Shown: positions 8,222-40,794 of the stretch, piece after piece
How positions within the stretch are numbered: position 1 is the stretch's first letter
Layout: the number at the start of each line of letters is the position of its first letter
Assembly (NCBI GenBank): GCA_963843145.1
Contig: CAWJJC010000020.1
Span: 1 to 64,000 of the forward strand
DNA: 64,000 nucleotides
Origin: an uncultured delta proteobacterium
GTDB taxonomy: Bacteria; Desulfobacterota; RBG-13-43-22
Direction: 5' to 3'
Program-made: the position numbers and the translations under genes
Notes under the pieces: generated by a model
What the model saw: only the letters and a program-made list of their open reading frames with translations
Told to the model about the DNA's origin: nothing
The model's database searches: none

Positions 8222-11211
8222 TTATTCTCGTATTAGCTCCCCCGGCTCGATTAACAATGGGATTTCCCCGGTCTGGTTTTTGGCCAATGAACGGTCCAAG
8301 AAGGCCCTGGACAGCAGGCCGCCCAACCCGACGGCCAGTAGGTCCACCACCCTGGATAGGAAGCCCGCCGATCCTCCCCCTAAACCGGAGAACAAGAAAG
8401 GGATCAGGGAACCGCCTAATCCCAACCCCAGGGTGGTGCGCAGCATCCGGTTGGGTGGTCGTTCACCGGTCCCTTCGCCCGCCCGGGCCCGGCAGGCATC
8501 GGCGTACAGCAACTGGTTGACCGACAGGCTTTGATGGAACAGACGCCCGGCTTCCCGACCCGTTCCGTATCGTAACAGACCGTACGCCCCAGGCCCTCCG
8601 GCCCCGGCCATCATGGCCAGGCCTTCCGGGATAGTGTCCCCCCACTCCCTTCCGGACAACAGGCCCTTCTCCGGAACGCTGTATTCCTTTTCCATAATCT
8701 CCGGATCCGGAGGATCCATGGCCAGGGAGAGACAGGCCAGGTTGGTCCAGAGCGGCTGCCAGACCCCGGCTTCCCGCCCCATCGATCCGCTGCGAGAGAG
8801 CAGTTCGGAAGCGATATCCACCTGGTTGTTCACCACCAGGAAGCGGATGCTTTTTCTTAAGTTCTCGTAAAAGGACCGCCCGTCGGCGATAGCCGCCGGC
8901 ACTTTGCGGATGTCGTCATCCTCAAGAACCAAGTCGGCAGTGTGGCGAGCCAGATCGGCCCCTTCCCTCCCCATAGCCATCCCGACATCCGCCACCTTGA
9001 GGGCCAGGACATCATTGAAACCGTCTCCCACCATGGCCACTTTCAGTCCGGCGCTCTGGTAGGCCTGAATAATTTCCAGCTTCTGAGTGGGGCTGAGACG
9101 GGCGAAAATATGGGCCCGGGTCGCTACCCCCATCAAGCTGGCGCGGTTCAACCCTTTCAGGTTCAAGGAATCCAGGATAACCAGCGGCTCTTCCCCGCTC
9201 AAACTCAGCTCCTGCCCGATATGGTTGGCGGTCAGGTTCTGGTCGCCGGTGATCACGGTGGTGCGTATGCCGGCCCGCTGCAGTTCGGCGATCATTTCCC
9301 TCGCCCCGGGCCTGATGGGGTCCGCCAGTCCCACCAATCCGGACCAGACCAGACTGCCCGATTCCGGATGATCCAAATCACGTTTCTTAACCCGGCCCCA
9401 GTAAAAAGCTACCCCCAGGACCCGGAGACCCTGACCGGCCATCCGGGAATTCTCCAGTTCGATACGCTCCCGGTCCTCCTCCTCCAGGTTCAGCGTTTCC
9501 CCGTCCTGGAAGCGGAAACGGCACCTTTCCAGGACTTCCAGCGGGCTGCCCTTGACCACCGTCAGCTTCCTTTCCTCATCCCAACGGTGAATCGTCATCA
9601 TCAAAGGGGTTTTTTCGCGGCGGTGGCGGATATCCAGTAGGGGGTGTTCGCTGCGCAGGGAGGCCACCGGCAGGCCGGCGTCCTCCGCCAGGACGATCAA
9701 GGCCTTTTCGGTGGACGAACCTTCCAAGGACCGCGGTCCGGCGGTTTCCACCAGGACCTCGTTACACAGGGTCGTGCAGGTAATCAGCCAGGAAATATCC
9801 CGAGTCCCTTAACAGGGCGAATTCCCGCCCGTCGCCATGCCAGGAATCTCCCCCGGGAAACCAGCACCCGTTTCCCTCCGGCCTGCATTTCGGCCGCGGT
9901 CATCCGGTTGCGGGTCAACGTCCCGGTTTTATCGAAACAGACCACCTGGATCGAGGCCAGGTTGGCCAGCACGCGCAGGCGGTGGACCAGGATGCGTTTT
10001 TTACGGAGTTCCACGTGCCCCAGGGCAAAAGCGCTCAAGGCCAGGGTGGAGATTCCGGAGGGGATGGTCGCGGCAATCAAAGCCAGGGTGTCGCGCATGA
10101 TCCGGACCAGACCGAAGCCGCGCAGCAACGAAAGCAGCGCATAGGCGAATGAAGCGCCCAGGGCCAGCCGAAAGAAATGGTAGGTTATTTTTTTGATCTC
10201 TCCGGCCGCTACGGCCTCCGGGGGAAACACCGCGCCTAAATACTGCTGCAGGCGGCCCAGGACCGTATGCGTCCCGATGGCCACCACCACCGCCCGCCCG
10301 CGGCCTTCCGCTACCAGGGTGCCCCGATAAATCATATTCCGCCGCTGGGGAATGGGCCGGTCTCCCCCTTTGAGGGCACTGGGGAACTTGTGCTCCGGGA
10401 GGCTTTCCCCGGTCAAGGCGGCCTCGTTCAGGCTCAAATGGTGCGCCTCGATCAGGCGGGCATCGGCCGGGATCCGCGATCCCACCTGCAGATCCAGCAG
10501 GTCCCCGGGGACCACCTTTCCGAATTCAATCTCCCGGACCGATCCATCCCGCACGACCCGGGCCTGGAGCACCACCCGGTGGCTGACCCGCTTCAGGCTT
10601 TTTTCAGCCCGGCTTTCGATGACCGTGCCCACGGCGATGTTGGCCAGGGCCACCCCCAGGGTCAGCAGACCGTCGAACACCCGACCGGCGATGATAGAAA
10701 AACCGGAAGCCCCGGCGATGAGCAGGATGGGCCAGGACAGGCTCTGCCCTTTGAGGATGTCGAACAGGGTCCTCCGGGACAATATAGGCAGCGCATTTTC
10801 CCCATAACGAACGGTCCGGGCCTCCGCTTCTATTGCGGACAATCCCATGGTCTCCGAGGTATCCAGCCGCCGGATGACCTCTTCGACTCCCAGCAGATGC
10901 CAGGAATCCGAACCGGCCTCCGGTTGAACCGGTTCCCCGACCGCTCCGGCATGGCCGGAATCCCGGGAGACGCCCTGGCCCGGTGAATAGCGGCCTACCA
11001 GGCGTTCCAGGCTTTCTATCAGGCCCTTTACTGATTGGGGCGATTGGTAGTGAATCAGGGCGGTCCCGGTCAACGGATTGGCAACCACCCGGATGATCCC
11101 AGCCTTTCCTTTGATCCCGGTTTCCAGAAAGCGGGCCAACGTTTCGGACCCCCGGAGGCCGGTGAGCTGAAACCGTATCCTTCCCTTTAGTTGGTGCACC
11201 ACCCGGATCAT
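8222..11211 (-). CDS. HMA2-fused P2-type ATPase with degenerate ion-binding sites (frameshift near 9780)
   Basis: N-terminal VVHQLKGRIRF, TGES, DKTGT, GDGFND; TM4 reads PSGI instead of PEGL. Confidence 0.85.
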
Positions 11212-11492
11212 TGTCCCCTTGCCTGTTTTCGCAAATAGTCCTAAATGATCAGGACCCATAAACCGGAAATTCGGATTTTGAGTTTCTAACCAAAACTTCA
11301 ATAATTTTTGGTTAGTATTATCCCCCAAAAATAATCAAAAAAGCAACGCCTTCCCGGCCAAGGATTATTTTTTTTCACCAAAATGTAACCTGCCGGAAAT
11401 CAAATCTATTCATAAACTATGCCATACTTTCTGTCGACAACAATGATATCCACTTTAAACGACCTGAACCATAAGGGGTACAGGGGGAGAAA

Positions 11493-12118: not shown

Positions 12119-12127
12119 TGCCCCCAT

Positions 12128-12833: not shown

Positions 12834-12842
12834 GAAGAAAAC

Positions 12843-13538: not shown

Positions 13539-13575
13539 TTAAGAATTTTTCAAATTCTTAAAGGAGTTGACTGCC

Positions 13576-20484: not shown

Positions 20485-20774
20485 ATGGTTGATAACGATA
20501 CTACTCCGATTCGATGTCCCCACTGCGAGTCCGAGGCTATCTATCGCGATGGCAAGACCTGGAACAAGAAACAGCGTTACTTCCGCCGGGCCTGCAGCCG
20601 GCAATTCCTCCCCGATCCGGAAAGGGTATCGATGAAAAAGAAACCGACCTGCCCGGCATGCGGCCGGCCCATGACGTTTATCGCCGTTATCCCCGGGTGA
20701 TCCGGTTCCGTTGTTCCGGCTATCCCGACTGCCGCCACTATCTCAAAATGTCTCTCAAAGGAGGAATGTGTACA
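20485..20774 (+). CDS. Double zinc-ribbon protein (InsA-like plus topoisomerase C4-like; frameshift near 20672)
   Basis: CPHCES..YRDGK...QRY..AC; CPACGRPM; RCSGYPDC; second part runs in frame into the HMA2 gene. Confidence 0.55.
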
Positions 20775-21146
20775 ATGAGCTACTACGTCCATCAAGTTCC
20801 TGGCCGACTGCGTATCAAATCGCCCTCGATTAAGAATAACCAGACGGAAGCGGTGGTGGTGGAAAATCTTTTGAAGGATATGGAAGGTATTAAATCCACC
20901 TCGGTCAGTACCTTGACCGGCAGCGTGGTTGTAAACGATGACTCTCGGATGGTCAGCGATCAAATGATCATCTCCCGATTGACCGACCTGGGACATTTTA
21001 AGCCGGCCCAGGCCAAAACCAACGACGAATATATCCAGGGGGCCTTTTCCACTGCCGGAGAGATCGTCTGGAAGGCCTTCTTCGGCTCCTTTGTCGATGT
21101 CGCCCTGGCCGGCACGCCGATATCCTTTGTCTCCGTTTTGATGTAG
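20775..21146 (+). CDS. HMA2-domain protein
   Basis: RBS GGAGG; MSYYVHQVPGRLRIK, TLTGSVVV, hydrophobic C-terminus. Confidence 0.75.
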   Translation: MSYYVHQVPGRLRIKSPSIKNNQTEAVVVENLLKDMEGIKSTSVSTLTGSVVVNDDSRMVSDQMIISRLTDLGHFKPAQAKTNDEYIQGAFSTAGEIVWKAFFGSFVDVALAGTPISFVSVLM

Positions 21147-27749: not shown

Positions 27750-27964
27750 GCCACCAAAGGTCCTGATTTCAACCTCACTATCTGATAATCCACTTCTTCG
27801 TCGCCCAATTTCGACTGGAGCGCCTCCTCGATCAACCTCCCCGTCGTTCCGGTGCAGACCAGCTTGTGTTTGACCAAGGACCGGTAATTGTATTCAAACC
27901 ATTCGATCAAATCCTTCTTACGGTTATCGTGCGCCACCAGCGCGATATTTTTGTTCTTCTCCAT
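27750..27964 (-). pseudogene. mgsA: Methylglyoxal synthase, N-terminal part
   Basis: IALVAHDNRK, CTGTTG, LKSGPL. Confidence 0.9.
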
Positions 27965-28301
27965 GCGATCTCCTTCGTTGTACGCCTTTCGGCAAAACCA
28001 TCAGGGATGATGCCATGCCTCAGTTAAGATAACCAGGCCCCGTTACCGTTTGAAGGCGGATTTCAAGCGGTTTGATATAAAAACGACCTATGGGGGATTG
28101 CTTTGTCGCTTCTCTCCTCGCCATGACAGACTGGGGGATTTTTTTGAGAGGTATCCGGTTTTAAGGAGAGGGGGAATCTTTATTCAGCAGGACCCTTTCC
28201 CGTATATATTCTTTATTGGTAATATATACTTTACAATAAATCCACTTGACTTGGATAATTCCTGTAATTATATCCATTTTGAACGATTTAAGGAGAAACC
28301 G

Positions 28302-28648
28302 ATGGAGCGTTTCCTCAAGGTCATGAAGTCCCTTTCCGATCCCAATCGGGTGAAGATCCTCAAGATGCTGGAACAGCGAAACCTCTGCGTCTGTGAGCTC
28401 CAGGCGGCCCTCGGCCTGGCGCAACCGACCGTTTCTAAGCACCTGAAGACGCTGGAGGAGGCCGGATTGGTAACTTTTTTCAAGGAGGGCCTGTGGGCAA
28501 TTACCGGTTGACGGAAGGCCGGGACAGCCCTTATGCCGCTACCCTGCTGGGGATCCTGAGGCACTGGCTGACCGATGACCCGGAAATCGCCGATTTGGTG
28601 AAGAAGCGCCTCCCTTTTATTCATCGAGAAGAGGTTTGTAAAAAATAG
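28302..28648 (+). CDS. ArsR/SmtB-family regulator (frameshift near 28500)
   Basis: KSLSDPNRVKIL, LCVCEL, QPTVSKHLK. Confidence 0.88.
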
Positions 28649-28666
28649 AACCTCAAAAGGAGATCA

Positions 28667-30028
28667 ATGATGAGACTGCTGATCATTGGCGGGAGCGATG
28701 CCGGGATAAGCGCGGCTATCCGAGCCCGGGAAATGGATCCATCTATTTCAGTCGTGGTAGTACTCCGCGATGCCTATCCCAACTACAGCATTTGCGGCAT
28801 CCCTTTCTTTATCAGTGGCGAAACGGCCGATTGGACGAATCTGGCCCACCGGTCTCTGGGGGAGCTAGAGGAAACCGGTATCGAAATTAGAAGCAACACC
28901 CATGCCCTGCGACTGAACCCGGAATCCAAAGAAGTACTCGTAGGCAATTCGTCCGGTCGTTCGGAATCGATGAAATACGATCGATTGATCTTGGCTACCG
29001 GCGCCCAACCCGTCGTCCCTTCCCTGGAAGGATTGAGTCAACCCGGAGTTTTCCAAATCCGCTGGATGGAGGACGCCCTGGCCCTGGCCCGCTTTATTGA
29101 CCAAAGAAAGCCCCGTCGGGCGGCCATTGTCGGCGCGGGGTATATCGGTCTCGAAATGGCCGATGCCTTGACCAAGTTGGGGATTGAAGTTAACCTGATC
29201 CAACGTTCCTCGCAGGTCCTGAAAACACTGGCCCCGGAGTTAGGTGAAGCGGTCAAGAGTGAATTGGAGCGGCACGGGGTTCGTGTTTTGACCGGTCGAC
29301 CCCCGGAAAGCATTCAGAGAAACGGCGATACATTGCGGGTTCTAGGACCGGAGGGCTTGGCTGTGGAAGCGGACCTGGTGTTGGTGGTGACAGGCGTCCG
29401 GCCGCAAGCCGCCCTGGCAGTGGATGCCGGAATCGCTACCGGAATCCAAAACGCCATAAAGGTTAACCGCCGGATGCAGACCAGCCTGACGGATGTCTTT
29501 GCCGCCGGAGATTGCGTCGAAACCTGGCATCGTCTTTTGGAGACCTTTGTTTATCTGCCCCTGGGTACGACTGCCTACAAACAGGGACGGGTAGCCGGTG
29601 AGAACGCCGCGGGGGGGCAAGCGGTCTTTGCCGGGAGTCTGGGGACCCAGGTCGTCAAGATATTTGATCTGGTGGCCGCCCGGACCGGTCTCTTGCACCA
29701 GGAGGCCCTGGAGGCCGGGTTCCAACCGCTTTCAATAAAAAAAGAGCTCTGGGACCACAAGGCCTATTATCCCGGTGCCAAAAAATTGATCGTCCATCTG
29801 ACCGGGGACCAGGAAAGCGGACGATTACTGGGGGCCCAAATTTTGGGGCCTTATGGGGCCGAGATTTCAAAACGGATCGATATCCTGGCCGCAGGGCTCT
29901 ATGCCGGCCTAAACGTCCAGGATCTGCCGGAGATGGATCTCAGTTATACGCCGCCCCTCTCAAGCCCCTGGGATCCGGTCCAAATGGCCGCCTTGTCCTG
30001 GCTGGATGAGAAGGCTATAATACAATAA
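28667..30028 (+). CDS. CoA-disulfide reductase / NADH oxidase-like flavoprotein
   Basis: GGSDAG, YSICGIP, GAGYIGLE, AAGDC, DLSYTPP. Confidence 0.88.
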   Translation: MMRLLIIGGSDAGISAAIRAREMDPSISVVVVLRDAYPNYSICGIPFFISGETADWTNLAHRSLGELEETGIEIRSNTHALRLNPESKEVLVGNSSGRSESMKYDRLILATGAQPVVPSLEGLSQPGVFQIRWMEDALALARFIDQRKPRRAAIVGAGYIGLEMADALTKLGIEVNLIQRSSQVLKTLAPELGEAVKSELERHGVRVLTGRPPESIQRNGDTLRVLGPEGLAVEADLVLVVTGVRPQAALAVDAGIATGIQNAIKVNRRMQTSLTDVFAAGDCVETWHRLLETFVYLPLGTTAYKQGRVAGENAAGGQAVFAGSLGTQVVKIFDLVAARTGLLHQEALEAGFQPLSIKKELWDHKAYYPGAKKLIVHLTGDQESGRLLGAQILGPYGAEISKRIDILAAGLYAGLNVQDLPEMDLSYTPPLSSPWDPVQMAALSWLDEKAIIQ

Positions 30029-30164
30029 AAGATGTTCGTAGGCAGGTAATGAATTAAATAGATGGCATTTTCCTTTTAAGGGCTTATGATTTATCAATAG
30101 GATAAAAATCCTTCCTTACCCCTCCCAAGCAGGCCTTAAACAGAAACTCGAAGATAAACCAGCC

Positions 30165-30803
30165 ATGCATCTGTCATACGTTCTCCTGCTCAGTATTGCC
30201 GCGGGCCTCGATTCCCTCTTTGCCGGCGTGGCCTATGGGCTCAAGAGTATCCAAATGCCCTTGCGCTCTTTGGCTGTCGTGGGGCTGATTACTGCTTTGG
30301 GAACCACCCTGTCCATGGTTGGTGCGCATCTATTAGGGAAGTTTATTGACAGCCGGTTCACCCTGGCGGCCGGCGCCTCCCTGCTGGTAGCTATCGGTCT
30401 GTTTAATCTGCTGAAGGTGTATCTCACCCACGGGGCTGCGCCCAGGGAAACCAACCGCACCGACAGGGCGCGCCGACTCATTTTCTCAATTGGCGGCCTG
30501 GTGATCAGCATCATGGCCAAACCGGAAACCGCTGACCTCGACGACTCGCAATCCATCAGCCTGGGTGAAGCGGTCCTTTTAAGTCTCGCGCTGGGTGTAG
30601 ACAACATGGTGGTTACGTTCGCCGCTCATCTGGCCAGCAGCCTGCCCCTGTACACGCCGCTCCTCATGGGTGGCATCCAGATGTCCTTCGTCAAACTCGG
30701 GGACTATGGAGCTCAGCACCTCCTATCCAGCCGTCTCAAGAATAGCCTCCCTTACCTGGCCGGCTGGATTTTCATTGCCTTGGGTTTGTCGCGATTGGTC
30801 TAG
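30165..30803 (+). CDS. YtaF/MntP-family membrane protein
   Basis: GLDSLFAGVAYG and ALGVDN repeats; multi-TM. Confidence 0.75.
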   Translation: MHLSYVLLLSIAAGLDSLFAGVAYGLKSIQMPLRSLAVVGLITALGTTLSMVGAHLLGKFIDSRFTLAAGASLLVAIGLFNLLKVYLTHGAAPRETNRTDRARRLIFSIGGLVISIMAKPETADLDDSQSISLGEAVLLSLALGVDNMVVTFAAHLASSLPLYTPLLMGGIQMSFVKLGDYGAQHLLSSRLKNSLPYLAGWIFIALGLSRLV

Positions 30804-30848
30804 GCTCAGTTTTTTAATCGAATATTTTTTAGAAAGGGGACGAGTTGT

Positions 30849-32049
30849 TCAGCCTCGCAGCATCTGGGCCTTGTCGGTCAGTTCCCAGGGTAGCCCGATG
30901 TCCATGCGGCCCACATGGCCGTAGGCCGCCAGCTTGCGGTAAAAGCCACCTTTGACCACGGACGGCTGGTAGCGGAGGTTGAATTGTTTGATGATCCCGG
31001 CCAGACGGAAATCAAAATGGTTCTTGATCAGGCCGGAAATTTCTTTGTCCGGAATGGTGCCGGTGCCGAAGGTTTCCACCTCGATGCTGGCCGGCCGGGG
31101 CAGACCGATGGTGTAGGTGAGCTGCACTTCACACTCCCGGGCCAGTCCGGCGGCCACCACGTTTTTGGCCGCGTAGCGGGCCGCGTAGGCCCCGATACGG
31201 TCGATCCGCAAGGGGTCCTTGCCGCTCAGAGCCGCGCCGCTATGCCGGGCATATTCTCCGTAGGTGTCGATGGCCGTCTTCCGGCCGGTCAAGCCCGGAA
31301 TGGACGGCCGGTCCGCCGATCAGGAAAGGCCCGTCGGGATTGATGAAAATGCGGGTTCGGTCGTCCGGCTGGATCTCTTCGTCATGAAAAATCTGGTCCA
31401 CCACCGCTTCCCGGATATCGTCGGTCAGCTTCCTTAAATCGGGCCCTCCGGCCTGGGGGGACATTTTTTGGCTGGCGATCACGGTCACACTGTGAATGCG
31501 GGAGGGGTGCCCGCCGCGATATTCCACACCCACCTGGGTCTTGCCGTCCGGAGACAGGTAAGGCAGCACTTTCTGCAGACGGGCCGATGTCAGTTTCCTG
31601 GCCAGTTTATGGGCCAGCCAGAGGGGCAGAGGGATCAGGGCCGCGGTCTGATTACAGGCGAAACCAAAAATGTTCACCTGGTTCTTGATCAGGATGCGGT
31701 CCATCTCCTCTTCCGAAATAGTGGCCTCATTAAAGAAGGTCTGGTCTTTGGGCGGCAGCTCCTTCAGGCTGGTGATGATGCTGCAGGTCTTGGCGTTGAA
31801 GGCCTGGTGCTCATAACCGATCAGGTTCAAGACCTTCCGGGCCACCCCGGGGAAATCCACCGTGGCGCTGGACTCGAACCGGGCGGCGATAAACAGGATG
31901 GCCGTGGCCACGGCGCATTCGGCGATCACCCGGGAAAAAGGATCCTGCTGCAGAAAATGGTCCACAATGGCATCGCTGATCTGGTCGCAGAGTTTGTCGG
32001 GATGCCCTTCGGTGACCGACTCGGACATAAAGACAAAATCCTCTTTCAT
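30849..32049 (-). CDS. metK: Divergent methionine adenosyltransferase paralog (frameshift near 31290)
   Basis: [32 protein letters not shown] present; GAGDQG replaced by IKNQVN. Confidence 0.85.
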
Positions 32050-35000
32050 GGGGTCTCCTTACTCATTTTGATGGTTTCGTTGATCAGCAGGGGGGCCACG
32101 GCCGTCCCGCCGATGACCAGCCCATCGACGAGCCCGACCGGCGAAAGCTGCATAAGAGACCGCAACCCGGGCACGAACAGGGTCGAGACCTGCAACAGCA
32201 CGGAAGCGGCCAGGGCCTGGGTCAACAAGCGGTTGGGCGGCAGCTTTTCCTTGGAAAAGATACTGATATGGTCGGACCGGCAACTGAAGGCATGGAGCAA
32301 CTGGCCGATGCTCAGGCTCATGAACGCCAGGGTATTGGCCTGGGGACCTCGGCCGTAGCGGACCAAGCCGTACCCGTAGGCCGACAGGGCCCCGGCGGAC
32401 AGCACCCCGGATTCGATCATGATTTTTTTAAAATCCTGCCGGCGGATGATCGGCTCTTTCGGGTCCCGGGGCGGTTTGGTGAGCACGTCCGGCTCCGGCA
32501 GTTCCATGGCCAAGGCCAGACCGGGGAAGATGTCCGAGATCAGGTTGATCCAGAGGAGCTGCATGGCATTCAGCGGCTCGCCCAGGCCGACCGCCAGAGA
32601 GCTGAAGACCACGATGATTTCGCTCATGTTGGTAGCCAACAGGAAATGAATGGCCTTGCGGATATTGTTGTAGATGGTCCGGCCCTGCTTGACGGCGATG
32701 ATCATGGTTTCCAGGCGGTCGTCTTCCAGCACCACATCGGCCACCTCCCGAGCCACGTCGGTCCCGGACCTTCCCATGGCTACCCCGATGTCGGCCACTT
32801 TCAGGGCCGGTCCGTCATTGATCCCGTCCCCGGTCATGGCCACCACCCGACCGGCCCGTTGCAGGGCCTGGACGATCTGCAGCTTGTGGGCCGGACTGAC
32901 CCGGGCAAAGACCTGGACCTTCTCGGCCAGGGCCTCCAGCAAGTCCGGCTGCAGACTGTCCAGGTTGCTGGAATCCAGGATCTCCAGGTCCTCCTCGCGG
33001 TTCAGCTTCAAAGATCGGCCTATGGCGTAGGCGGTGGCCGACTGGTCGCCGGTGATCATGACCGTATCAATACCCGCCGTGTGGAACTGGCCGATCAACT
33101 CCTTCACCCCTTCCCGGACCGGATCGCCCATGCCCACCAGGCCGAGCCAGGTGAGGCTCCCGACCGCATCGGGGTCCTCCAGAAAATTCGCTCCGTCCGA
33201 CAGTAGCGCGTAACCCACCGCCAAGACCCGCAGGCCCTTGCCGGCCAGGCGCTCATTCTCCATTTCCAGTTCCAGGCGGTCCTCTTCCGTGAGGGGCATT
33301 CGTTCCCCGTCACGCATCCAGAAATCGCAGAGGGCCACGACCTCCTGGGGGTTCCCCTTAACCGCCGCCACCCGTTGCCCTTCCTCGGCGGTCCGGTGCA
33401 GGGTGATCATGTAGTTTCGGGTTTCCGTACGCAGGGCCGTTTTTTCAACCGGGAACTGTTCCCGGAGACTCTGAATATTGACGCCGGCGGTCAAGGCCAA
33501 TTGAATGAAGGCGTTCTCCGTTGAAGATCCGCTGACCAGCACATTACCGTCCTGGAAGACCGCGAGCCCCTTGCCCTGGACTTCACGAGTTTTTTGCTGG
33601 TACACGTCGGCGTCGGGGATGAGGGAGCTGACTTCGCTTTCATTGCAGAGGACCGAAATATGGATGAGCTGAAGCAACTCCGGCCAGAGGTACGGATTGA
33701 CGACTTCTTCCCCCTGCTTGAACTGATCTTTTTCCAGGTGGATGCGTCGCATCCCCACATTGAGCATGACCACGGACATCCGGTTCAGCGTCAGGGTCCC
33801 GGTCTTGTCCATGCAGATGGTCTGGACCGACCCCAGGGTTTCCACGGCTTCCAGGTGACGGATGAGGACATTGTATTTGCGCATGCGCCGCAGGCCCAGG
33901 CCCAGCGTGGTGGTGGCCACGGTGGGCAATCCTTCCGGGACGGCCGCCACGGCCAGGGAAATGGAGCTCTTCAGCATCTGGAGAAATCCGTAGCCCCGCA
34001 GCAGGCCGATGACAAATACCAGCCCGCAGACCGCCCCGGAAATCAAGACCAGTTGGCTGCCCATGGTATCGAGCTGCCGTTCCATGGGGGTTTCCGGGGT
34101 CTGGGATTCTCCCATCAGGGTCTGGATCCGGCCGATTTCGGTAAACCGGCCCGTGCCCACCACCAGGGCCAATCCCTGCCCTCCGGTCACCAGGGTGCCC
34201 ATATAGGTCATGTTGGTCCGATCCGCCAGCGCCACCTCCATCTGCAGCGAGGCCCCGTCGGACGCCTGCCCAAAGACCACCAGGGTCTCCGTGGTTTTGG
34301 AGACCGGCAGGCTCTCCCCGGTCAATGCGGATTCATCGATGGTCAGGTTATGGGCTTCGATCAGCCGGGCATCGGCGGTTACATAGGTACCCGGACGCAG
34401 CACCAGGATATCCCCCGGAACCACCTCTTCGGCCCTGATTTCTTCGGCCGTCCCGTCCCGGACCACAAGGGCATGGGGCCGGACCAGGGTCTTCAGGGAG
34501 TGAATGGTCTTCTCGGACTGGCTTTCGGTGACATAGCCGATGACGGCATTGATCAACACCACCGAGGCAATGACCACGGCATCGGCGATCCCGGCGGTGG
34601 CCACGGATATCCCGGCCGCCACCCCGAGCAGGGCCACCGGAAGGGATTTGAACTGGTCAATGAAGATGCTGAAGCCCGAGCGAGGTACCGACTCGGGAAG
34701 GACATTGGGGCCGAATTTTTTCAGGCGGGAAAGGGACTCCGACTGGGGCAACCCCAGAGCGGAATGGGAGCCGAGCTGTTCCAGCAGATCATGGGCCGCC
34801 AGGAGATGCCAGGGTTGGGCCGTCTGCTCTTCGGAATGGACGACCAGATTCCGGATCTTCCGACGGCTGGAGGCGGTTTTTTGACCGATAACAGGGGCCA
34901 GGGGATGGCGGGATTTCGCCTCGGCCGGTTCCGTCCGGCGGTTTCCAGACTGTCTTTCCGGAAAAAAAAGGGGATAAAGGCCGGCCTTTCTTTCCCGGCC

Positions 35001-35252
35001 TTCCTTTATCCCGTTGTTTTGCTGAAAATTAAGGACCAGTGTTTGAAGCAGCGCCCCCAGCTCCTCCGGGGTCCGATGACCGTTGAATCGGATGAGTACA
35101 TGGCCGGTCAGAATATTGGCGGAAAAAGAATAGACTTCCCCCTCCTGGTTCAATTGATCCGCCAGATACTGCTTGAGTCCTTCCGAGCGGTAGAGGCCCT
35201 GGACCCGATACCGGACCCGGCCCCGGACCTCCGTATGGATGACTTCGACCAC
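32046..35252 (-). CDS. HMA2-fused P2A (Ca2+/Mn2+-type) P-type ATPase
   Basis: N-terminal IHTEVRGRVRY; TGES, AVPEGLP, DKTGT, TGDGIND, ATNMSE, WINLISD. Confidence 0.92.
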   Translation of the reverse strand: MVEVIHTEVRGRVRYRVQGLYRSEGLKQYLADQLNQEGEVYSFSANILTGHVLIRFNGHRTPEELGALLQTLVLNFQQNNGIKEGRERKAGLYPLFFPERQSGNRRTEPAEAKSRHPLAPVIGQKTASSRRKIRNLVVHSEEQTAQPWHLLAAHDLLEQLGSHSALGLPQSESLSRLKKFGPNVLPESVPRSGFSIFIDQFKSLPVALLGVAAGISVATAGIADAVVIASVVLINAVIGYVTESQSEKTIHSLKTLVRPHALVVRDGTAEEIRAEEVVPGDILVLRPGTYVTADARLIEAHNLTIDESALTGESLPVSKTTETLVVFGQASDGASLQMEVALADRTNMTYMGTLVTGGQGLALVVGTGRFTEIGRIQTLMGESQTPETPMERQLDTMGSQLVLISGAVCGLVFVIGLLRGYGFLQMLKSSISLAVAAVPEGLPTVATTTLGLGLRRMRKYNVLIRHLEAVETLGSVQTICMDKTGTLTLNRMSVVMLNVGMRRIHLEKDQFKQGEEVVNPYLWPELLQLIHISVLCNESEVSSLIPDADVYQQKTREVQGKGLAVFQDGNVLVSGSSTENAFIQLALTAGVNIQSLREQFPVEKTALRTETRNYMITLHRTAEEGQRVAAVKGNPQEVVALCDFWMRDGERMPLTEEDRLELEMENERLAGKGLRVLAVGYALLSDGANFLEDPDAVGSLTWLGLVGMGDPVREGVKELIGQFHTAGIDTVMITGDQSATAYAIGRSLKLNREEDLEILDSSNLDSLQPDLLEALAEKVQVFARVSPAHKLQIVQALQRAGRVVAMTGDGINDGPALKVADIGVAMGRSGTDVAREVADVVLEDDRLETMIIAVKQGRTIYNNIRKAIHFLLATNMSEIIVVFSSLAVGLGEPLNAMQLLWINLISDIFPGLALAMELPEPDVLTKPPRDPKEPIIRRQDFKKIMIESGVLSAGALSAYGYGLVRYGRGPQANTLAFMSLSIGQLLHAFSCRSDHISIFSKEKLPPNRLLTQALAASVLLQVSTLFVPGLRSLMQLSPVGLVDGLVIGGTAVAPLLINETIKMSKETP

Positions 35253-35262
35253 GTGCGGCTAT

Positions 35263-35943
35263 TTAGTTTTTTTTGGCCCGCCCGTGCGGACTGACCTCCG
35301 TAGCGGAAGAGGCCTCGGTCTCCCTGGAGGCGGAGGCCGCCCCGCTCCCCTTGGGCAGGAGGGAAGAGGCCACTTCCTTGACCCCTTCCACCACGCCGAC
35401 CAGCATGTCCTTCACAGACCGGACCGCGGTATTCCCAATGGTGCCGGCGGCCTCGATAGCGCCGCCCACGGCCACCTTGGCCACTTCCTCGACGTTGCCC
35501 CCCACTTCCTTGGTGGCCTCGATCACGCCGTCCACGGCCCGCCGGGCTACCAGGCCTACGTCGGCTCCGATCTCCGCGGCGCCTTTCACGGCCCCCTTGA
35601 CCGTCTGGCTGGCTACCGAAACCAAGTCACCGCCCACGTCGCTGATGCCCATGATCACGCCCTTGGCCACGCTCTTGGTGCTGAGGATCAGGCCCGTGCC
35701 GACTTCCTCCGAAGCCTGGATGGTCCCCTTGACCACATCCTTGGCGACGCTCAGGCTTTCGGTGACCACCGCGCCGCCGGCTCGTAGAGTCGTGGAGACC
35801 GTGTTGCGTACCAGGCTGACGATCTCGGATTCGATTTCATTGATGCCCTTCAGGCTGCTGACCACGCCTTCCTTGACGGAAGTGCCGGCCTTCCCGATGG
35901 TTTCATCCACTTTGGCGCCTGTCTTCTCCTGTTTTTCAGTCAT
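35263..35943 (-). CDS. Ala/Val/Gly-rich protein with 22-aa amphipathic repeats
   Basis: VVKGTIQASEEVGTGLILSTKS / VAKGVIMGISDVGGDLVSVASQ / TVKGAVKGAAEIGADVGLVARR / AVDGVIEATKEVGGNVEEVAKV / AVGGAIEAAGTIGNTAVRSVKD; RBS GGGAG. Confidence 0.8.
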   Translation of the reverse strand: MTEKQEKTGAKVDETIGKAGTSVKEGVVSSLKGINEIESEIVSLVRNTVSTTLRAGGAVVTESLSVAKDVVKGTIQASEEVGTGLILSTKSVAKGVIMGISDVGGDLVSVASQTVKGAVKGAAEIGADVGLVARRAVDGVIEATKEVGGNVEEVAKVAVGGAIEAAGTIGNTAVRSVKDMLVGVVEGVKEVASSLLPKGSGAASASRETEASSATEVSPHGRAKKN

Positions 35944-36022
35944 TACTTTTCTCCCTAAGAAAATAGTGTTGTTTTTTGTTTTAGATAATAAATTGTACTC
36001 GACTAAACTTTATGACTTCACA

Positions 36023-36550
36023 TTAAACCACCATCCCGTTGTCATTTGATTTCTCCGCCGGGGTTCCATTCTCCTTAGGTTTCGATTTCAAAAAAATGTT
36101 TAAGGCGTACCAGAAGGCCGTGTACCAGGCCGGGGCCATGAAGTTGCCGCGGCTGATTTGGTAAATGCCCATGATCAGCAGGGCCCCGAAAGACAGGGTC
36201 CCCACATCCATTTCCCCGCCGGTAAATTTTTTGATCTTATTTTCTACCTGGTTATATGTTTCAGTTACCTGTAGGTAAATATTGGAAGAAGGCGAACCAA
36301 TTTGTTTGGCCTGTCCGTGGAAATAGGTTCGGGCCAGATCTTTCATCATTGCCGGGTCCAGGGAATGCTTGATCAGGATGCTGCCGGTGACGGGATTGGC
36401 CGCCACCTCATGGATATTGGGATACTTCCCCGCCCGGTCCTTCAGGGACTGGAAAAAAGCAACGTCCCCTTTTCTCGATGGGACTCTGATCCGAAACCGC
36501 CCGGAGGTGGTGTGGCTGATATAGGCATCAGAAGGCAAATTGTTGAACAT
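36023..36550 (-). CDS. HMA2-domain membrane protein (FezC-like architecture)
   Basis: HTTSGRFRIRVP, ANPVTGSILI, C-terminal hydrophobic PAWYTAFWYA. Confidence 0.8.
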   Translation of the reverse strand: MFNNLPSDAYISHTTSGRFRIRVPSRKGDVAFFQSLKDRAGKYPNIHEVAANPVTGSILIKHSLDPAMMKDLARTYFHGQAKQIGSPSSNIYLQVTETYNQVENKIKKFTGGEMDVGTLSFGALLIMGIYQISRGNFMAPAWYTAFWYALNIFLKSKPKENGTPAEKSNDNGMVV

Positions 36551-36590
36551 GACAGTTCCCTCCGTCAAAGGCCGGACTAAATTTTTACCT

Positions 36591-36887
36591 TTAATCTTTT
36601 GCTTCAATGGTACCGTCCAGCCCTGTTGCCGCCATGGCTCCGGACCCGGCTTCTTCCAATTCGGCCCTGGTCTCGGCTACCAGGTCCTCCACCACCTCCT
36701 GGGCTTCGGCCGCCACTTCCCGACCTTTCTGGTAAAGCAGAAAACCGCCCTTGATGGCAGCTTTGGCCATAGGCTTGACAACACTGGCCAAAACAGGTAT
36801 GACCACAGGTGCCAGAATGGAAGAACCGATACCAATGGCCAAGCCTGTGACGATATTGCCTTTCAGACCGTTATCAAATAGACCCAT
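36591..36887 (-). CDS. DUF5132-like small membrane protein
   Basis: GLAIGIG (GxxxG) TM, KPMAKAAIKGG, EDLVAETRAE; RBS AGGAG. Confidence 0.8.
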   Translation of the reverse strand: MGLFDNGLKGNIVTGLAIGIGSSILAPVVIPVLASVVKPMAKAAIKGGFLLYQKGREVAAEAQEVVEDLVAETRAELEEAGSGAMAATGLDGTIEAKD

Positions 36888-36995
36888 ATCATCCGCTCCT
36901 TTCTCTTTGAAATAAAAATAATAGCTTTTTTCTATCTACTACAATAACAATTAAATCATTATTTGACTACGCATTTTCAATTTCAGGGAAATTTC

Positions 36996-37703
36996 ATGAA
37001 ACCGATCCCTTTAACAAAACGAATAATCTTTGCCCTGGATGTTGAAACCCCGGAGGAGGCCCGGGCCTGGGTGGAAAAACTGGAAGACTGGGTGAAGTTT
37101 TTTAAAGTCGGGCTCCAGCTTTTTCTGGCCGGCGGGTTCGACATCGTCGACTGGATTTTGCGACGCGGTTCGGAGGTGATGCTGGATCTCAAATTCTTCG
37201 ACGTGCCCCAGACTGTAGCCTCCGCTGTCAAGCAACTGGCCGGCCGGGGGGTATCCTTTACCACCGTCCATGGCAATGACGCCATCCTCCGGGCCGCGGC
37301 CGAAGCCAAACAGGGGGTGAAAATCCTGGCGGTTACTGTTTTGACCAGCCTGGACCAGGGGGACCTGAACGACCTTGGTTTTCAATGCTCCCCTGAAGAT
37401 CTGGTCCTATCCCGGGCCCGACGGGCCCTGCAGGTCGGCTGCGACGGGGTGGTCTCCTCAGGCCTGGAAGCGCCGAGGTTGCGAAAGGAACTAGGGGGAA
37501 ATTTCCTGGTGGTGGTGCCGGGGGTCCGGCCTGTAGAAAACCGAGTCGATGACCAAAAACGGATTGTCACTGTCCGGGACGCCTTTTTGAACGGCGCCGA
37601 CTACGTGGTCATCGGTCGCCCCCTGAAACAAGCCGCCGATCCCCTGGCTCTGGCCGCGGAGATGCAGCAGCAGATTCAGGAAGTGTTGGAGCAGAACGAT
37701 TAG
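36996..37703 (+). CDS. pyrF: Orotidine-5'-phosphate decarboxylase
   Basis: FALD, KVG, DLKFFDVPQTV, VLTS, VPGVRP, DDQKR. Confidence 0.95.
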   Translation: MKPIPLTKRIIFALDVETPEEARAWVEKLEDWVKFFKVGLQLFLAGGFDIVDWILRRGSEVMLDLKFFDVPQTVASAVKQLAGRGVSFTTVHGNDAILRAAAEAKQGVKILAVTVLTSLDQGDLNDLGFQCSPEDLVLSRARRALQVGCDGVVSSGLEAPRLRKELGGNFLVVVPGVRPVENRVDDQKRIVTVRDAFLNGADYVVIGRPLKQAADPLALAAEMQQQIQEVLEQND

Positions 37704-37937
37704 GGTCAGTTCCAGGTTTTTGAGCCCTTGACCAGTGGCTCTTGGCCAGTCATCCGGCCTGGCTCCAGATCGTTACCGATACCGTTGCGGGTAGCCCTGC
37801 GCCAACATTCAATGCAACCTCTTCGCTAAGCGGTGAACCAGATCCCGAACCCGTCACCATACTTAGGATCTGGCCGCCTTTAATATTAAAAATATAGTGG
37901 GGGTACGAATAACGTAAAGGAAAATTCTTATCGAAAA

Positions 37938-39791
37938 TCAACGAATAAATCGGTGGGCGTCTTTTCGCAGTTCGTGGCTCTCCAACACATGAAAAAAACG
38001 GATCGATTTAAGCAACGCCGGTGAAAACTGGCCGATCGGCAGAAAAACAATCTTTTTCCCTTGACGCTCGGCAAAGGTTCGGCAGAAGGATCGGGGTGGT
38101 TGGGCGGCAATATAGGCCACCAGGCGTTCCTCGCTGTAATCGATCCCGGCCAACAGCAGCCTTTCCGGCTTTGAGCGGGCCGCGTTGAAAAACCGATCTT
38201 TCCAAACTTCGAACATCCGCAAGGGGGGATAGCTTAAGACAAAGCCCCCGTACTCACAGCGGGAGATCCCGGGTCCGACCACGTTTTCACCGGCCGGAGT
38301 GGCGTAAAAAGCCATATCCGACTCCTGATCGTGCTCCCCCAGCCAGGTTATCTTCCAGGGAAACCGCTCCGCCTGGTTCTTCGACGATTCATCCTCCTCG
38401 AAAATAAACACCACGGACCCTACCTGGCCCCGGACGGAACTTTCCTCCCGGACATAGATTTTATTTTCCACCAGATGGCGCAGCGTCTCCTTCACGTCCA
38501 ACCCGTCCAAAAGGGAGGTGGTAAACGGAAGCAGCCGGACCTGTTCCTGAGACAAAACCCCTCGGGCCTTCTTCTTAACGTAATCCCCCAGACCTTCCAC
38601 CCGGATGTCTTCGGGGGGATAGGAGCAGATGGCCTCTCCCCGCCAGCGTTTTTTGAACTCCTCCTGTTCGGCCGGGGATGCCCTTTTTTTCGCGGGCACC
38701 GGCACCAGGCGACGGCGAAAAGTCCGGAAGCGCCGATAGAATTGGATCTTTTTCTGATTGATCCGAAGATCCTGGGCGGTCACCTCAATTTCCGGCAATC
38801 GGGACGGGCTTTCCTGGTAAGGGTAAGAGGACCCCCTCTCCCAGACTTCGTAGGAAAAGTCATCGTTGACCGCCCCGCGGGCCGCCACCAGAAGCTGGTA
38901 AAAATCCGGGGTCAAGGTCCCCTGGATAAAGGCATAGTTGCGGGCGAATTTTTTTAAGACGATCAAGGCCGGCTCCCTAATCTTTTCCCGGCTGTTCTTG
39001 TAATGCTGCCTTTGCGCCTCCCCCAGCAGTTCGTCGCGGAGGCGCAGGCGATCCAGATTCCAGAAATCTTCGGGATTGCCGGTCTCCCGGGCCTTGGTTC
39101 GTTTTTCTTCGTATTTTCCTTGTAAAAAGGGCAGCTCTGAAAGGATCTCCCGGCTGGAATCCTCCTTCAGGTTCCCCAACACGACCCCGGAGCGCGTCTC
39201 CCGCCCCAGGGGTTTGGCGGGTTCCAAATCGAGTTGCCTGCGGATTCCCGAGAAATGCCCCAGCCCGCAGACAAGAAGAACCCGTTGGTATTGGCGGCCT
39301 AAGGCCAGGACCTGAGAGGCCATGGTCCGTTCCCGCAGAAGGTCATCGGGAGTCGGGGTCTCACTCCCCCGTTCCTCCCAGTAAACCCGGCAATAGGCTT
39401 CGTAACCGATTTGGGTCAGCGCATAGGAGTCCGGCATGGGGTCCCGAAATAGGGGATAGCCCTCGATATCCCGATCTACAAAAAAAACCGGGAGGGCCTG
39501 CTCTTGTGCCAAGCGAACCGCCTCGATAATCCCATCCACGGGTTCTATAGGCAGATATACCGTTCTTCCGGACTTTTCCGGGTAAACCAGGACCGAGAGG
39601 TAGGGCAGACGACGGACGCCGGCTACTATTTTTTCCTGCAGGGTAGGGGGCAATTCCACTGCCACGGCCGAAGGCCGGAGATCGGTAAAACGCCGGTGAA
39701 CCTCCAGGGCAAATTCCAGCCGGTTGTGCAGGATGGGAACCAGGTGGATGTTCTTAAAGGTGAAAAGGTGGTTTTCGTTAGATGGGGTCAT
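37938..39791 (-). CDS. Conserved hypothetical protein downstream of the AAA+ gene
   Basis: Long intact ORF; AVELP, RERTMA, VCGLGH (TraB/Tiki-like start), ICSYPPED, GEHDQESDMAFY. Confidence 0.75.
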   Translation of the reverse strand: MTPSNENHLFTFKNIHLVPILHNRLEFALEVHRRFTDLRPSAVAVELPPTLQEKIVAGVRRLPYLSVLVYPEKSGRTVYLPIEPVDGIIEAVRLAQEQALPVFFVDRDIEGYPLFRDPMPDSYALTQIGYEAYCRVYWEERGSETPTPDDLLRERTMASQVLALGRQYQRVLLVCGLGHFSGIRRQLDLEPAKPLGRETRSGVVLGNLKEDSSREILSELPFLQGKYEEKRTKARETGNPEDFWNLDRLRLRDELLGEAQRQHYKNSREKIREPALIVLKKFARNYAFIQGTLTPDFYQLLVAARGAVNDDFSYEVWERGSSYPYQESPSRLPEIEVTAQDLRINQKKIQFYRRFRTFRRRLVPVPAKKRASPAEQEEFKKRWRGEAICSYPPEDIRVEGLGDYVKKKARGVLSQEQVRLLPFTTSLLDGLDVKETLRHLVENKIYVREESSVRGQVGSVVFIFEEDESSKNQAERFPWKITWLGEHDQESDMAFYATPAGENVVGPGISRCEYGGFVLSYPPLRMFEVWKDRFFNAARSKPERLLLAGIDYSEERLVAYIAAQPPRSFCRTFAERQGKKIVFLPIGQFSPALLKSIRFFHVLESHELRKDAHRFIR

Positions 39792-39805
39792 CCCTTTTCT
39801 GAGCT

Positions 39806-39943
39806 CAAATTCGAAATTCGAAGCACGAAATCCGAAACAAGCACGAAGGTCCAAAATCCCAATGATCAAAACCAAAACGTTTCGAATTTTGAAATTTGGT
39901 CATTTGAATTTGTTTCGGATTTCGTGCTTCGAATTTCGAATTT
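39806..39943. repeat. Palindromic element built of 7-mer units (CGAAATT/CGAAGCA/CGAAATC)
   Basis: Second copy 58739-58871; half copy about 52208-52264. Confidence 0.75.
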
Positions 39944-39948
39944 AAAGG

Positions 39949-40794
39949 CTAAAGTTGGAAATACATGAGGGCCTTTTCCCCCAGGATCATCTCCACGGCC
40001 ATCCGCAGGGCATAACCAGGGCGTTCTTCGCCGGGGACCCTCCTCAACAGACCATCGGTTTCCAGGATCTTCAGGGCGTAGCGGGCGATATTGATCCCGT
40101 CCCGCACCGTGAAGCGTTCATGAGCCCGGTGGGCTAACTGCAGAAATCGGACTACATAATCCAAGATATCCTCGGGGGCGAAGGGCAGGTTACGCTGGAG
40201 GATCAGCCGTTCCTCGTCCGGCTCGGGAAAGTCGATGAAGATCTGAGGCTGGAGGCGGGAATGAATATATTCCGGCAGTTCATAGGTGCTGGCATCATCG
40301 TTCATGGTGGCGCAAAAACGAAAATTCGGATGGGCCGGCACTTTTAGGCCGGCTACGATCGATTCCACCGTGCGGCGGTTGTCCAGCAAAGGCGCCAAGG
40401 AGGCCCAGGATTTTTCGCTCATCCGGTTGCCCTCATCCAGGATCAATACTCCACCCCGCAGCATGGCCGTCACCACAGGACTGGCCATGTAGCGGATCTT
40501 CCCCTGGTCGGCAATGACCGGGGTGACGACCAGGTCTTCCGGTCGGGTATCCATAGTGGCCTGGAAAAAATAGACCTCCCGGCCTAAGCGACGGGCGGCG
40601 GCGTAGGCCAGGGTGGTTTTGCCCACACCGGGCTTGCCCACAATGCGGGGGTGCAGGGGGAGGTCCTGTTCCTCCACCACCAGCCAGGCGGCCAGCACCT
40701 GGTCAATCAAATCCGGCTGTCCCACCCAGTCCAGGGGAAAAACATCCGGACGGCACAAGTGCAGGGTAACCCCTTCGATAATCACGGTTTCCAT
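39949..40794 (-). CDS. MoxR/CbbQ-like AAA+ ATPase
   Basis: GKPGVGKT, LILDEGNR, CATMN, SRL. Confidence 0.85.
   Translation of the reverse strand: METVIIEGVTLHLCRPDVFPLDWVGQPDLIDQVLAAWLVVEEQDLPLHPRIVGKPGVGKTTLAYAAARRLGREVYFFQATMDTRPEDLVVTPVIADQGKIRYMASPVVTAMLRGGVLILDEGNRMSEKSWASLAPLLDNRRTVESIVAGLKVPAHPNFRFCATMNDDASTYELPEYIHSRLQPQIFIDFPEPDEERLILQRNLPFAPEDILDYVVRFLQLAHRAHERFTVRDGINIARYALKILETDGLLRRVPGEERPGYALRMAVEMILGEKALMYFQL

Follow-up and report, generated by a model that had tools for sequence, protein, structure and literature searches.

A recurrent operon that joins ferrosome-type accessory proteins to a P2A-type ATPase and a divergent MetK-like enzyme, with a candidate role in cation handling

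What is a gene cluster that looks like a ferrosome operon but is built on another class of pump, does it exist beyond a single genome, and what might it do? These questions are raised by a locus in the first 64,000 nucleotides of contig CAWJJC010000020.1 (assembly GCA_963843145.1, an uncultured delta proteobacterium), the stretch of DNA that we analysed as a whole and refer to as the window. A list of open reading frames (ORFs) together with Pfam matches places five co-oriented, closely spaced genes on its minus strand between positions 30849 and 36887. A first-pass annotation of the window had described such a set, made up of a DUF5132-like GxxxG protein, an HMA2 membrane protein, a 22-residue repeat protein, an HMA2-fused ATPase and a divergent MetK, and all five are present:

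36591..36887, minus strand: DUF5132 small membrane protein of 98 amino acids (aa); PF17195, 42 bits (cut-off 25)
36023..36607, minus strand: CoBaHMA (HMA_2) protein with a C-terminal two-helix membrane hairpin; PF19991, 66.4 bits, profile positions 9-153 of 154
35263..35943, minus strand: 22-residue repeat protein of 226 aa; no Pfam or NCBIfam family
32046..35252, minus strand: P2A-type ATPase with an N-terminal CoBaHMA domain, 1068 aa; E1-E2_ATPase, Cation_ATPase_N and Cation_ATPase_C
30849..32049, minus strand: MetK-like paralog, split into 31240-32049 (MetK N and M domains) and 30849-31292 (C domain)

Genome-wide there are one DUF5132 gene, five HMA_2 matches, of which four lie inside the window, and seven P-type ATPase genes (eight Pfam matches). 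The assembly consists of 32 contigs with a contamination of 6.9%. Three genes of interest have broken frames in it, at 31293, 9750-9900 and 20680, which calls for caution with gene calls in the rest of the genome; the breaks are more likely to be assembly indels than marks of pseudogenes.

For the synteny survey one genome per species was scanned with the ATPase, yielding 598 confirmed relatives, of which the best 80 loci (numbered from L001) were kept. Genes were called by tblastn with the window proteins, and the DUF5132 and HMA_2 labels come from a Pfam scan of 150 of the 174 candidate ORFs. Single-linkage clustering merged the ATPase, MetK, DUF5132 and HMA_2 frames and was used only for spotting other recurrent neighbours. 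The ATPase aligns from its N-terminus in 59 of the 80 loci. Where such an ATPase is followed by at least 1300 nt of DNA, a MetK paralog lies directly downstream in 47 of 50 cases, the three exceptions being L059, L063 and L068, and the stop codon of the ATPase and the start codon of MetK frequently overlap. Among the 21 loci without an aligned ATPase N-terminus, 16 have at least 1300 nt downstream. Seven of these carry MetK, five being cut at the contig start (L034, L042, L044, L070, L072) and two fragmented (L043, L058); in the remaining nine, which align from about query residue 128-196 and have upstream DNA, MetK occurs in none. Thirty-seven loci have at least 1500 nt of upstream and 4500 nt of downstream DNA, and in these tblastn detects DUF5132 in 33, MetK in 34, HMA_2 in 26 and the repeat protein in 17. 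Pfam places PF17195 in 43 of the 80 loci and a separate PF19991 protein also in 43. The small genes are found downstream of MetK in L013, L025, L046, L055, L062 and L064 (on the same strand in L064), so the linkage survives rearrangement.

Judged from sequence and tree labels, carriers of the cluster belong to at least seven phyla, namely Thermodesulfobacteriota, Nitrospirota, Cyanobacteriota, Pseudomonadota, Acidobacteriota, Candidatus Binatota and Myxococcota. Recurrence of the synteny in different phyla puts the arrangement well outside what chance would give. The first-pass annotation had held that its reading would fail if the genes did not co-occur elsewhere; the 47 of 50 MetK linkages and the spread over at least seven phyla demonstrate that they do. 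A sample of 300 further genomes from the phylum of the window includes 21 in which HMA_2 matches within an open frame of 1010-1176 aa, and one of these, G229, was verified to encode a pump with the PEGL motif together with a MetK paralog. Chlorogloeopsis fritschii PCC 6912 harbours two ATPase-MetK modules (L003 and L118) with two paralogs. The second module (L118, G301:C1:1576000-1595000, at 8635-13542) has no DUF5132 gene upstream, the C-terminus of its ATPase is a separate ORF of 106 aa, and a CheR-type methyltransferase lies just downstream. In the literature searched, which extended neither to the full CoBaHMA survey nor to the ferrosome supplements, both of which may bear on priority, we found no description of the five-gene operon and on that basis treat it as previously undescribed.

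The two small membrane proteins have the layout expected of ferrosome-type accessory proteins. In the DUF5132 protein a hydrophobic Gly-zipper segment (GLAIGIG) at the N-terminus precedes a Lys-rich stretch and an acidic helix. E64 and D68 are invariant in an alignment of 36 homologues (A1), and the protein is FezA-like. The HMA_2 protein is built like FezC; comparison with L001 favours the ATG at 36550 (175 aa) as its probable start over the TTG at 36607. It bears the signature HTTSGRFRIRV and has no cysteine, so no CxxC metal site, and its residues H13, R18 and R20 are invariant or nearly so among 27 sequences (alignment A3). An AlphaFold2 (AF2) model with a mean predicted local distance difference test score (pLDDT) of 81.6 comprises a beta0-beta1-alpha-beta-beta-alpha domain with beta0 at residues 10-14 and beta1 at 18-22, a linker helix, and helices 116-133 and 140-156. 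As described, a CoBaHMA domain is marked by an additional beta0 strand that carries a conserved His, by basic residues in beta1/beta2 and by the lack of CxxC (PMC8890360), and the predicted structure, with its extra beta0 and ferredoxin-like core, matches this definition. Foldseek with the model returned no match at E <= 0.001, only weak ferredoxin-like ones (ATP7B HMA, E 0.03; YbgJK, E 0.02). A complex prediction for the hairpin protein (A3) with the DUF5132 protein (A1) scored 0.05, below the 0.32 mark for giving any answer. The cyanobacterial DUF5132 proteins are longer, with 174-211 aa (L003:7267-7839, L012:7343-7966, L035:7438-7962, L050:7183-7818). Those of L003, L035 and L050 show a weak HMA_2 match on the C-terminal, membrane-hairpin part of the profile, without a CoBaHMA domain, and are by this criterion natural fusions of the membrane parts of both accessory proteins.

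The pump itself contains DKTGT, TGES, GDGIND, the PEGL motif, N..E in transmembrane helix (TM) 5 and N..SD in TM6, all conserved across its relatives. Its best matches of known structure are the Ca2+/Mn2+ pump SPCA1 of humans (3.5e-149) and two Ca2+ pumps, Listeria LMCA1 (4.6e-143) and SERCA (~4e-117). These P2A pumps have the catalytic motifs, PEGL in TM4 and N..(S/T)D in TM6 in common with it, whereas the operon pump carries about 145 additional residues at its N-terminus. These comprise a CoBaHMA domain (residues ~3-75, signature HTEVRGRVRYR) followed by a linker of ~70 aa. The HMA2 fusion proposed in the first-pass annotation is borderline by score, with 27.2 bits by hmmscan (cut-off 30) and 32.6 bits in a six-frame search. 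The Ca/Mn-type assignment made there agrees with PEGL, with the nearest solved structures and with the absence of D[YF]SCA and HNxxT from the pump. Aligned with SPCA1, the PEGL glutamate in TM4 and N...D in TM6 are conserved, but in TM5 N and E replace S and A, and in TM8 a Q replaces the acidic residue (D). In SERCA numbering, the ion site presumably comprises N768, E771, T799, D800 and E908, and the N..E of TM5 is as in SERCA. The best NCBIfam models of the pump are those of Ca2+ pumps. It stays below the NCBIfam equivalog cut-offs of the PMR1-type (TIGR01522, 618.3 versus 798.3 bits), SERCA-type (511.4 versus 703.4) and PMCA-type (392.9 versus 507.05) families. Because of these scores and the Q at the presumed E908 position, ion and stoichiometry are uncertain; our best guess is Ca2+, with Mn2+ possible.

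How this cluster relates to ferrosomes can be judged by comparison with fez genes. Grant et al. describe FezB as a P1B-6 ATPase with D[Y/F]SCA, HNxxT and an Arg-rich N-terminal motif (RxR or RxRxR), and FezC as an HMA domain with two membrane helices and an Arg-rich motif; FezA-like proteins contain GxxxG (10.1101/2020.01.10.902569). According to the same account, FezA, FezB and FezC of D. magneticus are enriched in isolated ferrosomes, and fezBC is needed for ferrosomes. In our phylum sample HMA_2 also matches the starts of open frames of ~700-800 aa, and 12 such regions were examined. Seven of the 12 encode ATPases with HNxxT and one of DYSCA, DYSCV, DYSCG or DFGCA, their N-termini reading H..GR[IL]R[LF]R, and these loci have FeoA, a DtxR-type repressor and a FeoB-associated protein as neighbours. 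We read the seven as fez clusters, as judged from motifs and neighbours and not from names. Beside one FezB-type pump, the protein at L095:9239-9802 matches HMA_2 with 142.7 bits over the full profile, and the small proteins directly upstream of FezB-type pumps are assigned to DUF6110 or, weakly, to DUF5132 (18-19.5 bits). Comparison by hhalign of the 36 DUF5132 proteins (A1) with four of these upstream proteins (A2) gives a probability of 94.5% and an E-value of 7.5e-8, with a template profile of four sequences only; DUF6110 and DUF5132 may belong together. Moreover, the signature H-x3-5-GR-x-R is common to the window pump, the hairpin protein, nearly all related pumps and the FezB-type pumps.

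Given the HMA_2 matches, the signature and the hhalign result, the three accessory modules are shared by descent with fez clusters. On this comparison the resemblance to ferrosome clusters is homology and not analogy alone, the pump core excluded. None of the papers searched applies the term CoBaHMA to ferrosomes. The kinship with FezA/B/C that profile comparison was proposed to examine is thus upheld by HMA_2 on FezB-type N-termini, by HMA_2 neighbours and by hhalign, and the earlier suggestion of a distinct lineage of the system holds, in that the cluster joins a separate, very widely conserved branch of the Fez-type accessory system to a P2A pump. HMA_2 matches are also seen at the N-termini of CPC-type P1B ATPases, which in L084, L085 and L091 (of the L084-L095 set) are paired with FezB-type pumps.

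The two systems are alike in having a small Gly-zipper/GxxxG protein, a two-helix HMA protein and an Arg-rich CoBaHMA N-terminus on the pump, but they differ in the pump core, which is P2A with PEGL in the operon and P1B-6 with D[YF]SCA and HNxxT in fez clusters. The operon further adds a nearly universal MetK-like enzyme and, in 26 of the 80 loci, the 22-mer repeat protein, and it does not have the iron-homeostasis neighbours. FeoA, FeoB, Fur and DtxR are labelled neither beside the window cluster nor in the Pfam-scanned flanks of L003 and L118, and they are not recurrent among the neighbour families inspected in the 80 loci. No open frame above 400 aa with D[YF]SCA occurs anywhere in the genome from which the window derives. 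Membrane-bounded iron-phosphate granules characterise ferrosomes, whereas an organelle of the operon would be putative.

The repeat protein contains about eight 22-residue repeats rich in V, G, A, E and K. As the first-pass annotation had noted, the period is 22 aa, with a BLOSUM autocorrelation of 1.06 at lag 22 and 0.92 at lag 44 compared to at most 0.23 at other lags. Tandem Repeats Finder detects no 66-nt DNA repeat in the gene, and the periodicity exists at the protein level only. The hydrophobic moment over residues 16-200 peaks at 1.30 at 98.2 degrees (0.15 at 100 and 0.26 at 95), a strict 11/3 amphipathic periodicity (11 residues per three turns) with one continuous hydrophobic face. 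Long-range 11/3 coherence of this kind is the pattern of lipid-surface amphipathic helices. The protein resembles repeats of the apolipoprotein, perilipin and alpha-synuclein type, compared here for a possible mode of action only, in its 22-residue repeats, 11/3 periodicity and continuous hydrophobic face; it differs in having no sequence or fold match to them and in that AF2 gives a helix-turn-helix solenoid. This model, built from 23 sequences, is all-helical (pLDDT 66.4) with seven helices, five of them of ~19-22 residues, separated by breaks of 1-4 residues. Foldseek pairs the model at E <= 0.001 with only two proteins, both de novo designed, the best being the designed helical repeat DHR4, and a Protein Atlas search returned unnamed 'hypothetical' clusters only. 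The gene is found in none of the cyanobacterial loci. We consider its product a candidate membrane-surface or scaffold protein.

The most tightly linked and least explained part of the cluster is the MetK paralog. By ORF coordinates the stop codon of the ATPase and the start codon of MetK share a 4-nt ATGA overlap, and the paralog is predicted to be translationally coupled to the pump. The divergence and the overlap noted in the first-pass annotation both stand; overlooked there were the frameshift near 31293, owing to which the gene is not one intact ORF in the window, and the loss of methionine-binding residues. The split is caused by one extra base at ~31293, within the conserved HSGLTGRK motif, as seen against L001, which has an ATPase with 97% amino-acid identity and an intact MetK paralog of 399 aa without the extra base. 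The base is also absent from three of three contigs covering the site in two public sequencing runs (X5 with one, X15 with two; 90-99% alike). While the two window halves score 193 and 158 bits to TIGR01034, intact paralogs in relatives reach 352-404, above the cut-off of 309.4. A housekeeping metK with 537-628 bits exists beside the paralog in all 11 genomes inspected, i.e. the window's own genome (contig C21) and ten other carriers. In a tree of 61 sequences from a quick IQ-TREE search, one branch with 100 in the Shimodaira-Hasegawa-like approximate likelihood ratio test (SH-aLRT) parts 51 paralogs from 10 housekeeping copies, and the paralogs form a separate clade.

Of the columns that are invariant in housekeeping MetK, 83 are kept in more than 80% of the paralogs and 31 are changed. 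Residue numbers are those of E. coli, derived by subtracting 3 from the housekeeping reference position, a conversion consistent with all eleven named residues. The changes that stand out in the 51 paralogs are as follows:

Glu55: Arg in 44, His in 6, Lys in 1
Gln98: Leu in 27, Met in 7, His in 4, other residues in the rest
Ile102: Asp, Glu or Lys commonest, together in 29
GAGDQG motif: lost, with Asp118 being Asn in 27, Asp in 11, His in 5 and other residues in the rest
Asp238: His in all 51
Lys269: Arg in all 51

The paralogs keep H14, D16, K17, E42, D163, K165, R244, K245, K265 and D271, and the residues for ATP, triphosphate and metal among them (His14, Asp16, Asp163, Lys165, Arg244, Lys245, Lys265, Asp271) are each kept in 42-51 of the 51. 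In published descriptions of MetK, methionine is contacted by Gln98, Asp238 and Glu55, with Gln98 and Lys269 binding its carboxylate and Ile102 its side chain (PMC1282579, PMC3853416). In the paralogs the acidic ligands of the substrate amino group are now basic. Compared to MetK proper (TIGR01034), the operon paralogs thus have the three-domain fold, a score above the cut-off and the triphosphate, metal and adenine-ribose residues, but they form their own clade, have lost GAGDQG, replace E55, Q98, I102 and D238 and carry K269R. Residue conservation indicates that the paralog retains the nucleotide and triphosphate machinery and has lost the methionine pocket. A changed substrate or a triphosphate-centred role may be inferred from this.

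Other recurrent neighbours provide links to calcium and phosphate. A Na_Ca_ex exchanger gene lies within a few kb in five of the 80 loci (L010, L042, L046, L053, L055), PhoU is nearby in six, with the ABC ATPase beside it confirmed by Pfam in four, and PstS is encoded in L005, L007 and L016 as well as in the window, at 5870-6871. Universal stress protein genes recur near the cluster, and a second P-type ATPase is found in L012, L020, L022, L037 and L059. A small DUF3562-like protein follows the MetK paralog in about eight loci, for example L005, L007, L009, L025 and L072 (Pfam-checked at L007:13228-13647 only). The convergent YtaF/MntP gene that had been pointed out nearby is indeed present at 30165-30803. 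It is not conserved, occurring in none of the 80 related loci, not even L001, and is ruled out as a cluster member, its position being incidental; pyrF, adjacent in L001 only (1/80), is ruled out likewise.

A further lead comes from cyanobacterial biomineralization. In Microcystis, DUF5132 and CoBaHMA-hairpin genes are reported to flank, and to be co-expressed with, ccyA and a Ca2+/H+ exchanger (10.1101/2024.07.07.602159). The ccyA product, calcyanin, is linked to intracellular amorphous CaCO3 in the accounts drawn on here (10.1101/2024.07.07.602159, PMC8890360). C. fritschii PCC 6912, which carries two modules of the operon, is reported to have ccyA and, as far as this report goes, no carbonate granules but Ca- and P-rich inclusions. 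In both the ccyA neighbourhood and the operon, DUF5132 and CoBaHMA hairpin proteins adjoin a Ca2+ transporter, a putative one in the operon, and the His/basic CoBaHMA signature is conserved. In contrast, the ccyA neighbourhood has a Ca2+/H+ exchanger and a GlyZip calcyanin where the operon has a CoBaHMA-fused P-type ATPase and a MetK-like enzyme, and most carriers of the operon are not cyanobacteria. We regard the calcium links of Microcystis and C. fritschii as leads, not tests.

Taken together, we tentatively put first a Fez-like system that would clear Ca2+ or Mn2+ from the cytoplasm, perhaps to a store enclosed by a membrane. In such a system the DUF5132 protein, the HMA_2 hairpin protein and the CoBaHMA domains would build the pump into a specialised patch of membrane or a vesicle, the basic CoBaHMA face probably contacting anionic lipids. 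The pump would spend ATP to move the cation from the cytoplasm into the space of the patch or vesicle, and the cation might be stored there, perhaps with phosphate. The amphipathic repeat protein would coat or shape the membrane surface in those lineages that have it. The MetK-like enzyme, the least understood step, would probably make or hydrolyse a product other than S-adenosylmethionine for the system.

A simpler arrangement, which we find quite possible if on balance doubtful, is a Ca2+ (or Mn2+) efflux pump of the cytoplasmic membrane with regulatory subunits and no compartment. The DUF5132 and hairpin proteins would then act like the small single-span regulators of eukaryotic P2 pumps and the CoBaHMA domain as an autoinhibitory or lipid-sensing module, and co-expression of the MetK-like enzyme would reflect an effect of the pump-inducing stress on adenosyl or phosphate metabolism as well. 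The nearest solved relatives of the pump include the plasma-membrane pump LMCA1, the Na_Ca_ex genes in five loci fit a general Ca2+ extrusion, universal stress protein genes recur nearby, and a regulatory function of CoBaHMA has been proposed (10.64898/2025.12.07.689555). However, the same three accessory modules accompany FezB, where they are described as components of an organelle, an 11/3 amphipathic repeat protein is unexpected for a simple pump, and DUF5132 and CoBaHMA genes are reported to be co-expressed with a marker of intracellular carbonate granules.

Several observations weigh against a compartment. The PhoU and Na_Ca_ex links are minority features, and the repeat protein is missing from the cyanobacterial loci and from many others. 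Bacterial P2A pumps are ordinarily Ca2+ exporters of the cytoplasmic membrane, and the pump of the operon remains below the NCBIfam cut-offs and has Q at the position that we take to be E908. CoBaHMA domains reportedly occur on many membrane proteins (Gaschignard et al. 2024) and may have a purely regulatory role. No factor for mineralisation, for instance a carbonic anhydrase, a polyphosphate kinase or calcyanin, was recognised in the cluster, no search being aimed at calcyanin. The MetK-like gene has no counterpart in the seven fez loci examined or in the descriptions of the ccyA neighbourhood as far as these go, and it is unexplained by the compartment model. Localisation, inclusions and transport are predictions from gene content.

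Alternatively, the operon could be centred on the product of the MetK-like enzyme, which would either transfer the adenosyl group to some compound other than methionine or serve as a triphosphate-releasing ATPase or tripolyphosphatase, with the pump and its helpers supplying or removing a needed cation or handling a (poly)phosphate-cation product. The tight ATPase-MetK link with its often overlapping stop and start codons, the replacement of methionine ligands (D238H and K269R in 51 of 51) with ATP and triphosphate residues kept, and the coexistence of a housekeeping metK in all 11 genomes argue for it. We nevertheless consider it improbable: the neighbourhood shows no conserved candidate for a substrate or a downstream enzyme, and L059, L063 and L068 keep the pump and helpers without MetK. 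A true ferrosome variant storing iron, with a different P-type class recruited for Fe2+, is very improbable and was rejected on pump motifs and neighbours: its accessory modules are homologous to the fez ones and many carriers are anaerobes, judged from organism names, but the ion-site residues of the pump are of the P2A type and P1B-6 motifs are missing from it, FeoA, FeoB, Fur and DtxR are not found among the cluster neighbours inspected whereas the fez loci examined have such genes, and aerobic nitrifiers and cyanobacteria also carry the cluster.

The two further HMA2 loci that had been reported near the operon are both present in the window:

8222..11328, minus strand: second CoBaHMA-fused P-type ATPase, split into 8222-9751 and 9784-11328 (Pfam and translation)
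20485..21146, plus strand: InsA-type Zn-ribbon and soluble CoBaHMA pair (Pfam and ORFs)

The second ATPase has IPSGI in place of PEGL in its TM4 region. Its orthologue in L022 (7034-10009; 47-51% identity by tblastn) lies directly after the MetK paralog, and more extended forms of the system may have a pair of pumps, an arrangement also known from some fez clusters. The Zn-ribbon frame at 20485 is broken and runs into the soluble CoBaHMA gene, the two being separate adjacent genes in relatives such as L007. By tblastn the Zn-ribbon occurs in 12 loci and the soluble CoBaHMA protein in 32, and a soluble HMA_2 protein of ~123 aa is confirmed by Pfam. A Methyltransf_24 protein and a phosphatidylserine decarboxylase are encoded at 12128-13538 (plus strand), divergently from the second ATPase. 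A pair of the same kind with 55-59% identity lies upstream of the cluster at L033:3060-4420, and the pair may be a link to lipid metabolism.

Elsewhere in the window, a DruA (Druantia) domain protein followed by a 193-aa ORF without a Pfam family is located at 26365-27785 (plus strand) and an IS110-family transposase at 4529-5638 (minus strand), placing mobile or defence DNA within a few kb of the cluster. At 37938-40794 (minus strand) an AAA_5 (MoxR-like) ATPase adjoins a protein of 645 aa with a faint DUF5682 match, a pair that occurs in none of the 80 loci. An Rfam scan of 27500-38500 found no riboswitch, its single match being a chance miRNA (E 0.3), and promoter and terminator consensus scans at the locus did not rise above shuffled controls. 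Sampled words of the sequence were covered to at most 0.18 in any public sequencing run. Contigs from RNA libraries, 90-95% alike, span parts of the operon and are not evidence of transcription in the source organism.

In its furthest form, which is unlikely as a whole, the operon would encode a storage organelle for Ca2+ (or Mn2+) with a Ca-phosphate, polyphosphate or carbonate phase. It would be a sister of the ferrosome that arose by a swap of a P1B-6 for a P2A pump on a FezA/FezC/CoBaHMA chassis and was spread by gene transfer over at least seven phyla, equipped with a MetK-derived enzyme that has given up S-adenosylmethionine synthesis for a new ATP-dependent reaction required by the organelle, for example adenosyl transfer to an anionic substrate or triphosphate production. 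Among bacterial lipid-bounded metal stores, to our knowledge, the genetic blueprint is known for ferrosomes only, and for intracellular carbonate granules we know of a marker gene only so far. Since the MetK paralog exceeds the TIGR01034 cut-off, it is expected to be annotated as methionine adenosyltransferase, yet all direct methionine ligands are replaced, which makes it a candidate for a new enzyme activity hidden in hundreds of genomes. Carriers that can be cultured include Chlorogloeopsis fritschii PCC 6912, Nitrosospira sp. Nsp14 and Rivularia sp. UHCC 0363. One accessory set of a Gly-zipper protein, a CoBaHMA hairpin protein and a CoBaHMA tag on the pump travels with two classes of P-type pump and ties together ferrosomes, the ccyA neighbourhood and the operon, which suggests a general module for building or regulating pump-bearing membranes.

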